Shown here piece by piece: positions 36,401 to 39,400 of a stretch of DNA of 64,000 nucleotides. The stretch's first letter is position 1; every line of letters starts with the position of its first letter. Position numbers: made by a program. The stretch lies in the NCBI RefSeq assembly GCF_057098645.1, contig NZ_CM169472.1. One strand, written 5' to 3'.

Positions 36401-39400
36401 ATATCATCGAGCAACGTCAGTAAACTACTCCCGGCCAAAAGCATTCCCTCTCATTTTTATTGTTGAAGGGTGTAAGTATGAAGCAAAAACGGCAGCTCTG
36501 ATACTTGCTTCACAGGTCAACATTTTTTTAACAATCAAGTGCAATTATATCTCTCGCCAGCAGAATGATTTTCACGTTTACTATGAACCACCTTTTTATT
36601 TCCACCGTGAGGGATTATGCGTTTCCGCCAGTTATTACCGCTTTTTGGCGCGCTGTTTGCGTTGTATATCATTTGGGGCTCAACCTATTTTGTCATTCGG
36701 ATTGGCGTGGAAAGCTGGCCTCCATTAATGATGGCGGGCGTTCGATTCCTGGCAGCCGGTATTTTATTGCTGGCATTTTTGCTACTGCGCGGACACAAGC
36801 TCCCCCCGCTACGTCCGCTGCTCAATGCCGCGCTGATTGGCCTGTTATTGCTGGCTGTCGGTAATGGCATGGTGACGGTTGCCGAACATCAAAATGTTCC
36901 TTCCGGCATCGCCGCCGTAGTGGTTGCAACCGTGCCCCTCTTTACCCTGTGCTTCAGCCGCCTGTTTGGCATTAAAACGCGCAAACTGGAATGGGTGGGT
37001 ATCGCCATTGGGCTTGCCGGAATCATCATGCTCAATAGCGGTGGAAATTTAAGCGGCAATCCGTGGGGCGCGATTCTGATTTTAATCGGCTCGATTAGCT
37101 GGGCGTTTGGCTCAGTTTATGGCTCGCGCATTACCTTACCTGTAGGGATGATGGCGGGTGCGATTGAGATGCTGGCGGCAGGCGTGGTGTTAATGATCGC
37201 GTCGATGATTGCGGGTGAAAAACTGACGGCGCTCCCTTCCCTTTCAGGCTTCCTTGCGGTCGGCTATCTGGCGCTGTTTGGTTCGATTATCGCCATCAAC
37301 GCTTATATGTATTTAATCCGCAACGTCAGTCCGGCTCTCGCCACCAGCTACGCTTACGTTAACCCGGTGGTCGCGGTCTTGCTGGGTACGGGACTGGGCG
37401 GAGAGACGTTGTCGAAGATTGAATGGCTGGCGCTCGGCGTAATTGTCTTCGCGGTGGTACTGGTCACGTTGGGAAAATATCTCTTTCCGGCAAAACCCGT
37501 AGTTGCGCCAGTTATTCAGGACGCATCAAGCGAGTAAATGAATCCCCTGCGTGTCGATCTGCGCGCTGGCACCTTCGCCGCAGATCCACTCTTCCAGACG
37601 CTCGCTAAGCGCTTCATCCGTCAGCTTCTCGCGCCCACGTAACGCGCACTCCCAGACAATCAATACGCGCCAGCCGAGTTCCTGCAAGCGACTGATATCG
37701 CGGCGATCGCGCTCAACATTTTTACCTATCTTCTCCAGCCAGAACTCGGTTCGAGTCGCAGGCACTTTAAACAGATAGCAGTGATGATGATGCCAGAAGC
37801 AGCCATGGGTAAATATCACGCAGCGATATTCATCAACGACAAAATCCGGGCGTCCGGGCAGACTGGCGTCCTGAACGCGAAACGCCAGGCCCTGCCCGGT
37901 TAACAGACTGGCGAGGCGCTTCTCAATCGCCGTATCACGCGTGGCAATCGCGCGCATATTTTTGCTGCGAGTGGCCTTATCGTGAACGTCGGCCATGTTG
38001 TGCCTCTTGCTGACGCAACGCCACCGCCTGTTTGATTTTTGGCTCAAGCAGTTTTGCCACCGCGGCAAAGACCGGCACGACCACCGAGTTACCGAACTGG
38101 CGATAGGCCTGAGTGTCCGAAACCGGAATGCGGAATTTCGCTTCTCCCGGCGCTTCAAAACCCATTAAGCGCGCGCATTCCCGAGGCGTTAACCGACGTG
38201 GACGATGTTGCTGATTCTGCGGATCGTCAAAGTCTTTCTCACCCGTGGCCATATCCCAGCCGCGATCGATTAAAATTTCCGCGCCATCTTTGTAATAACG
38301 CGCAGACAGCGTACGGGTGACGCTTTGCGGATTGTTCGGATAAACCATTCCATAACCGAAGCCGTTACCGCGCGCCTGATGTTTTTTCGCATATCGATAG
38401 AGGTACTTCCACAGCACCGGCGTCAGGATATATTTCGCCTCGACCATCGGGTCCAGCAGCTGCGCTAGCGTCACTCGCTGTCCAGGGAAACATTCGCTGA
38501 TATCACGCAGAGTAAAATCGGCTTTAAGATTCAGATCGCGACGAAAACCCACCAGCACGATGCGTTCACGGTGCTGCGGCAGAAAATGTTTACCATCGAT
38601 GATTTTCGGATCGTCCGGCCCGTTATCTTCTGCATCAGCCACGTCATAGCCCAGTTCGTCCAGCGTCTGCATGATGATGCGGAACGTTTTACCCTGGTCG
38701 TGGCTTTTCAGGTTTTTGACGTTTTCGAGCACAAACATCGCCGGACGACGCGCGTCGATAATGCGCACCACATCAAAGAACAGCGTGCCCTGAGTATCGC
38801 AGGCAAAACCGTGCGCCCGCCCGAGCGAGTTCTTTTTCGATACGCCAGCCAGCGAAAATGGCTGACAAGGGAAACCGGCCAGTAAAACATCGTGTTCAGG
38901 AATGTGTTGACGAATATGTTCCGCCGCCGCCTCATCACTCACGCCTTCTTTATGGCTGAGGGTGATGTCGCGGATATCTTCATTAAAATGATGCGTCGCC
39001 GGATCGCAATAATGGTTGGCTTTATAAGTGCGTACCGCATGTTTGTTCCATTCGCTGGTAAACACGCACTGTCCGCCAATCGATTCAAAACCGCGACGGA
39101 TGCCGCCAATTCCGGCGAATAGATCGATAAAGCGAAACGCATAATGCGGATGATGTGCCGGTGGTTTGGGTAACAACGTTTGCAGATGGGCGAACTCTTT
39201 CTCACTTAAACGGTGCCATGCCGAGTCATTCGCCAGCGCACGTTTTAAAATTGCCGCGCTCCAGTGATTCTCACCTACACCATTAAGCTGAGCCACCAGC
39301 GTTTTAACATCATAAATTTGCAGCAGTTTCTCCAGCATTGCCTGTGCGGCATTCCCGGTGCTGTATGAATCGGTTACTGATATATTTTCCTGCATAGATT

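Follow-up and report, generated by a model that had tools for sequence, protein, structure and literature searches.

Classical coupled gene pairs that overlap (ATGA or TAATG junctions, for example, trpB-trpA) are read from one mRNA, with the upstream stop near the downstream start and the Shine-Dalgarno (SD) sequence of the second gene inside the first. The dcm-vsr pair of Escherichia coli shares with them a stop near a start and a downstream SD within the upstream coding sequence. In contrast to their usual overlap of 1 or 4 nucleotides (nt), however, dcm and vsr overlap by 20 nt, so a terminating ribosome would need to move 17 nt backward in order to reinitiate. Here we describe this junction in a 64,000-nt stretch of contig NZ_CM169472.1 (RefSeq assembly GCF_057098645.1), which we refer to as the window. 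In it, dcm encodes the DNA cytosine-5 methyltransferase of CCWGG sites and vsr the very-short-patch repair endonuclease of T:G mismatches.

The closest described system is the dcm-vsr operon of E. coli K-12. Work by Dar and Bhagwat from 1993 reportedly found that Dcm and Vsr are each translated on their own from a shared mRNA and that efficient Vsr synthesis needs upstream translation of dcm. The two genes lie in one operon and are co-transcribed (PMC12907096; PMC4924334). According to PMC4444293, which cites Dar & Bhagwat 1993, dcm partly overlaps vsr, and the dcm-6 allele, with its nonsense codon at position 45, causes loss of vsr activity as well. Genetic linkage of a Vsr-family nuclease with a 5-methylcytosine (m5C) methyltransferase has been described more widely (PMC12907096). 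Such linkage is shared, for example, by pairs on Rhizobium, Acidithiobacillus, and Pseudomonas plasmids, by those of Neisseria, and by ScmA/VsrA of Caulobacter, and the plasmid matches carry the annotation 'very short patch repair endonuclease' together with 'dcm'. These plasmid pairs and the pairs from other phyla differ from dcm-vsr in that their Vsr is only ~35–50% identical and in that the pairs often lie within restriction-modification systems.

The dcm-vsr junction and its K-12 counterpart

The junction in the window is very probably the one native to the E. coli chromosome, in the same form as in K-12, with both genes on one mRNA and Vsr translationally coupled to dcm. Direct reading of the sequence placed the vsr ATG at 37996..37994, 17 nt before dcm ends in its TAA stop codon (37979..37977), which is counted within the overlap. 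The 3' codons of dcm are CAA CAT GGC CGA CGT TCA CGA TAA (QHGRRSR and stop), and the overlap spans the final seven of the gene, stop counted. Because the vsr ATG begins on the second base of the His codon CAT, vsr lies in the +1 frame. The preliminary description had put the vsr start 20 bp inside the 3' end of dcm in another frame, and its coordinates were exact to the base.

Comparison with MG1655 (NC_000913.3) disclosed an identical 20-nt overlap in the RefSeq annotation, where vsr occupies 2030448..2030918 and dcm 2030899..2032317. The window and MG1655 were 100% identical over 121 nt with the junction in the middle. The alignment to K-12 dcm-vsr, which had been suggested earlier as a check, gave a junction that matched base for base, with the annotated vsr start and dcm stop at the same positions; a different vsr start was therefore not found. 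The MG1655 operon (b1961-b1960) also shares the strand order, the +1 frame, protein lengths of 472 and 156 amino acids (aa), and its neighbours, with yedJ upstream and yedA convergent downstream with a 12-nt 3' overlap. It differs by three amino-acid substitutions only (Dcm A305G and L393Q; Vsr T131S), none of them in the overlap. The dcm-vsr region was 100% identical to that of E. coli O145 RM9872 (NZ_CP028379.1). The junction described here is thus that of the K-12 operon itself, and its arrangement is already known.

Both protein identities were well supported. Dcm matched PF00145 (260 bits), PF18284, NF007772 'DNA cytosine methylase' (952 bits, cut-off 710), and TIGR00675 (350 bits), and its translation contains the conserved motifs I (FxGxG), IV (PCQ), and VI (ENV; LENVKN). 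It was identical to K-12 Dcm at 470 of 472 residues. Vsr matched PF03852 (134.4 bits, cut-off 27) and TIGR00632 'vsr' (182.7 bits, cut-off 97.85), with positions 1–119 of the latter profile aligned on Vsr residues 1–118, and 155 of its 156 residues were those of K-12 Vsr. The crystallised full-length E. coli Vsr (PDB 1cw0_A) was likewise identical over 155 aligned residues except for T131S, and its first residues, ADVHDK, correspond to residue 2 onward of the vsr open reading frame (ORF). T131S falls outside the Vsr core HGCFWHHHHC, and the residues assigned in the literature to catalysis, Zn binding, and DNA intercalation are the same as in the crystallised enzyme. Given its 99% identity to K-12 Vsr, the protein would be expected to nick T:G mismatches in the CTWGG/CCWGG context. 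With both proteins far above their family cut-offs and an identical K-12 annotation, the overlap is not a chance overlap of ORFs.

The arrangement had been called expected for E. coli, which the complete genomes bore out. A 51-nt junction sequence was found in 5367 of 5426, being identical in 3291, and the 121-nt junction was matched in 5332. The 2.1-kilobase (kb) dcm-vsr region was matched in 5367 of the 5426 genomes and covered to at least 80% in 5358. Three junction variants were inspected (SC516, H8, and N96, at 98%, 96%, and 90% identity), and in each the ATG, the TAA, and their spacing were unchanged; they were likewise kept in A1.S1.160, the most divergent full-length E. coli match. The same 20-nt overlap is annotated in RM9872, MG1655, A1.S1.160, N96, H8, and SC516.

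Some records in the E. coli collection stand apart. In strain CM13 (NZ_CP114893.1, 3084468..3084990), only the last 72 nt of dcm remain, and the vsr SD and the overlap are retained; this looks like an engineered deletion that spares vsr ('host: not applicable' in the record). The dcm-vsr junction is also reported at two places on records labelled as plasmids. In PLSDB, a 4.8-megabase (Mb) 'plasmid', NZ_OL790696.1, carries a 100% identical Vsr and is probably a mislabelled chromosome.

Table 1. Coordinates of dcm, vsr, and associated features in the window
Feature	Position	Strand	Basis
dcm, DNA cytosine-5 methyltransferase (CCWGG), 472 aa	37977..39395	-	ORF list, family profiles, K-12 alignment
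vsr, very-short-patch repair T:G mismatch endonuclease, 156 aa	37526..37996	-	Translation, family profiles, K-12 alignment
dcm/vsr overlap, 20 nt, ATGGCCGACGTTCACGATAA, vsr in +1 frame relative to dcm	37977..37996	-	Read from sequence
Putative SD AAGAGG within dcm, 6 nt 5' of the vsr ATG	38003..38008	-	Consensus match; function presumed
vsr (-) / yedA (+, 36617..37537) convergent 3'-end overlap, 12 nt	37526..37537		ORF list

Overlap state across Enterobacterales

One genome per GTDB species was scanned with a DNA pattern encoding the Vsr motif HGCFWHHH, which gave at least 120 loci. Since this motif lies ~190 nt inside vsr, the scan was unbiased by the junction. At each locus, Vsr and Dcm were located by tblastn and the junction was then read off; the resulting Enterobacterales sample is limited and pattern-selected. 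An overlap of exactly 20 nt was found in at least 31 species representatives, with Vsr ~72–95% identical to that of the window. These comprised Escherichia albertii, two more Escherichia species clusters, Salmonella enterica subsp. diarizonae, Citrobacter, Enterobacter, Lelliottia, Kluyvera, Trabulsiella, Raoultella terrigena, Pseudocitrobacter, Pseudenterobacter, and one Klebsiella metagenome-assembled genome, among others. Six of the matches listed had other overlap lengths: the genes overlap by 35 nt in Siccibacter, whereas Raoultella planticola and two Pluralibacter share 17 nt and two Superficieibacter only 14 nt.

No overlap was present, among the matches listed, in Cedecea, Entomohabitans, Shimwellia, Erwinia, Serratia, Xenorhabdus, Dickeya, Rahnella, and Rouxiella. 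Altogether, a non-overlapping spacer occurred in at least 15 Enterobacterales species, usually of 5–14 nt and in some of 30–177 nt, with Erwinia reaching 118 nt. The pairs of Cedecea, Shimwellia, Erwinia, Serratia, Dickeya, Rahnella, Rouxiella, and Xenorhabdus resemble that of the window in having a Dcm of ~68–74% identity directly followed on the same strand by a Vsr of ~59–80% identity that begins with MADVH. In contrast, their Dcm ends in AVKKR or similar, without the ~11-residue tail that enters vsr in E. coli.

The two reading frames of the overlap differ in their conservation. The Vsr N-terminus reads MADVH(D/N)K where the overlap is exactly 20 nt and begins with MADVH or a close variant at every junction compared, overlapping or not, whereas the Dcm tail within the overlap is variable (HGRRSR, HGGRSR, DGGRSR, NGGRSQ, or NDGCSQ). 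The tail varies freely because each synonymous third position in vsr coincides with the first position of a dcm codon. The dcm TAA arises from Vsr codons 6–7 (GAT, AAT, or AGT followed by AAR); in Siccibacter, these codons are GAC AAA, and dcm continues to the following stop, giving the 35-nt overlap. A purine-rich GAG(G) patch is found at the position of the vsr SD in other genera too.

These observations bear on an explanation in which the overlap is real but a neutral by-product of the first in-frame dcm stop, with Vsr translated independently from its own SD and no functional coupling. The overlap length indeed follows the first stop in the dcm frame (20, 35, or 14–17 nt by genus), the Dcm residues inside it are poorly conserved, and the species with a spacer, at least 15, are accompanied by several with vsr but no adjoining dcm. 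Nevertheless, the exact 20-nt geometry persists in the 31 or more species representatives over the range of Vsr identity given above. We regard a neutral overlap as unlikely, and it is the main live rival to translational coupling.

Since the sampled families outside Enterobacteriaceae and several genera inside it are without the overlap, the overlap is most simply seen as a derived state. On balance, and from this limited, pattern-selected sample, we lean towards a 20-nt overlap that is not ancestral but was derived in a single set of genera within the Enterobacteriaceae (Escherichia, Salmonella, Citrobacter, Enterobacter, Klebsiella/Raoultella, Kluyvera, and relatives), with the Dcm tail as an unconstrained passenger and the length set by the Vsr sequence. 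An ancestral dcm stop ~10–14 nt upstream of the vsr ATG would have been lost, and dcm would then have been extended into vsr up to the TAA of Vsr codons 6–7. A stop of the ancestral type would survive in Cedecea, Shimwellia, and Entomohabitans, and the families of Erwinia, Serratia, and Dickeya have spacers of similar or greater length.

A vsr gene without an adjoining dcm was seen in several Enterobacteriaceae (Vsr ~80–88% identity), including Kosakonia, Phytobacter, Enterobacter sp. Bisph1, and Klebsiella oxytoca. In Kosakonia, Phytobacter, and Bisph1, vsr directly follows the HD-phosphohydrolase gene yedJ, 11–18 nt past its stop. In Klebsiella oxytoca, it is preceded by another gene, whose product starts with MNPPVNKMNQAYEAIE. 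By gene order, such vsr genes would be 'orphans' at their locus, without an adjoining methylase whose damage they would repair.

Translation start of vsr and coupling to dcm

The SD-like AAGAGG upstream of the vsr ATG gave a duplex of -5.8 kcal/mol with the 3' end of 16S rRNA, compared with -2.0 kcal/mol for the next in-frame ATG, which encodes Met14 at 37957. If the annotated start were wrong and Met14 the true one, there would be no overlap with dcm, and a mutant Vsr that lacks its 14 N-terminal residues was the subject of earlier work (PMC2715241). Besides its weaker SD match, however, a Met14 start disagrees with the conservation of MADVH in the Enterobacterales orthologues compared, also where dcm does not overlap, with the alignment of TIGR00632 and PF03852 from residue 1–2, and with PDB 1cw0, which begins at Ala2. 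A start at Met14 is thus very improbable. Upstream of the annotated ATG, the only start-type codons in frame are three TTG (38047, 38068, and 38158), which lie in sequence conserved in the dcm frame. Alternative starts for vsr were rejected, as upstream there are the three TTG only and Met14 combines a poor SD with the loss of conserved N-terminal residues.

The vsr frame stays open upstream of its ATG as far as 38167, and together with its +1 position this would be compatible with a Dcm-Vsr fusion made by +1 ribosomal frameshifting in the overlap rather than by independent initiation. A canonical ATG and SD, however, occur exactly where family conservation starts, orthologues with a stop and spacer between the genes encode the same Vsr, and the crystallised, biochemically active Vsr is a 156-aa protein. 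We consider frameshifting to be wholly implausible and rejected the fusion on the canonical start with its SD and on the stop-and-spacer orthologues.

Under translational coupling, dcm and vsr, arranged head to tail on the minus strand, would be read from one mRNA. Ribosomes translating dcm would cross the ribosome-binding site of vsr and terminate 17–20 nt downstream of its ATG. Their passage or termination would keep the vsr start accessible or permit local reinitiation, thereby promoting initiation of Vsr. Such coupling would tie the enzyme that makes 5-methylcytosine in CCWGG to a repair nuclease for the T:G mismatches that result when this base deaminates. Both co-transcription and the dependence of Vsr synthesis on dcm translation are carried over to this strain from the K-12 literature through sequence identity, and would hold here to that extent. 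A weak scan for the sigma-70 consensus on the minus strand, within dcm and the yedJ-dcm spacer, gave no site, a result that agrees with co-transcription from upstream of dcm but is not decisive against an internal vsr promoter.

The neutral explanation meets further evidence here. The vsr gene has its own SD-like AAGAGG, well spaced from the ATG. According to PMC2715241, Vsr activity depends on the growth phase, implying control separate from dcm; coupling therefore cannot be the sole control. On the other hand, the codon-45 nonsense of dcm-6 also removes vsr function, as PMC4444293 reports with reference to Dar & Bhagwat 1993, and this speaks against independent translation.

Several points bear on the coupling mechanism set out above. 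Polarity at the level of transcription, instead of strict translational coupling, could account for part of the Vsr loss in dcm-6. Relatives with a spacer, together with the Kosakonia and Phytobacter vsr genes that have no dcm, show that vsr expression does not, as a general rule, require the overlap, and the short spacers of relatives and the vsr genes without dcm suggest that the overlap as such may be dispensable. A hairpin over the vsr SD/ATG was not supported either, as a 151-nt fold of the junction was no better than shuffles (z = -0.42), and in a 20-species alignment RNAalifold placed no helix with conservation or covariation over the SD/ATG (consensus energy -2.8 kcal/mol, 0 compensatory pairs). 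The RNAalifold output consisted only of a trivial 8-pair end-to-end helix without covariation. A hairpin that masks the vsr SD/ATG and is opened by dcm ribosomes was rejected on the shuffle result and the 20-species alignment, which leave this 'hairpin unmasking' model unsupported. These objections concern the coupling mechanism only, and nothing opposes the gene identities or the geometry of the junction. A full-text literature search for 'translational coupling' with vsr and dcm returned no match.

The wider window and significance

The 12-nt overlap of the vsr and yedA 3' ends is also annotated in K-12 (yedA end 2030459, vsr end 2030448) and in RM9872. Overlapping dcm at one end and yedA at the other, vsr is thus overlapped at both ends.

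The window aligned to RM9872 over 11..43324 only, with 17 single-nucleotide polymorphisms and two small deletions, one a 9-nt in-frame loss within a GCA repeat of the flagellin gene fliC (~10094) and the other of 1 nt near 19118, in the region of the espR3 pseudogene. Identity with RM9872 throughout was rejected, as past 43324, where the RM9872 annotation does not apply, a P2-family prophage is found instead, and no complete RefSeq E. coli genome covered the whole window. The prophage extends from ~43322 to the window end at 64000 and carries ogr, gpD, tape measure, sheath/tube, baseplate, lysis, capsid, and terminase genes. It is 99.9% identical to an RM14721 prophage adjoining ybjL, and only one of its ends lies inside the window. 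The hchA gene (glyoxalase III, 42793..43341) is open for 182 aa compared with 283 aa. With hchA cut to this length and the prophage beginning at ~43322, the phage appears to have inserted into hchA, where none is seen in RM9872 or K-12.

An intact gene for an OmpC-like porin lies at 41059..42201 (+), with an ORF of 380 aa that is annotated as 'porin' in RM9872; K-12 has the pseudogene yedS there, and a P2-like prophage splits this porin gene in strain OkiPb01675. Only two Rfam matches in the window exceeded the gathering score, the sRNA genes DsrA at 32305..32391 (-) with 102.5 bits and RseX at 40727..40816 (+) with 99 bits.

Both the Dcm methylase and the Vsr repair nuclease are intact in this strain and follow the textbook arrangement. 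As dcm-vsr is intact as in K-12, CCWGG methylation and very-short-patch repair should behave in a K-12-like manner, judging from the genes. This matters little, being a well-known, expected arrangement with nothing new in it. The distribution of overlap states in Enterobacterales is a minor evolutionary footnote, one that could guide a test of the part that the overlap plays in coupling.

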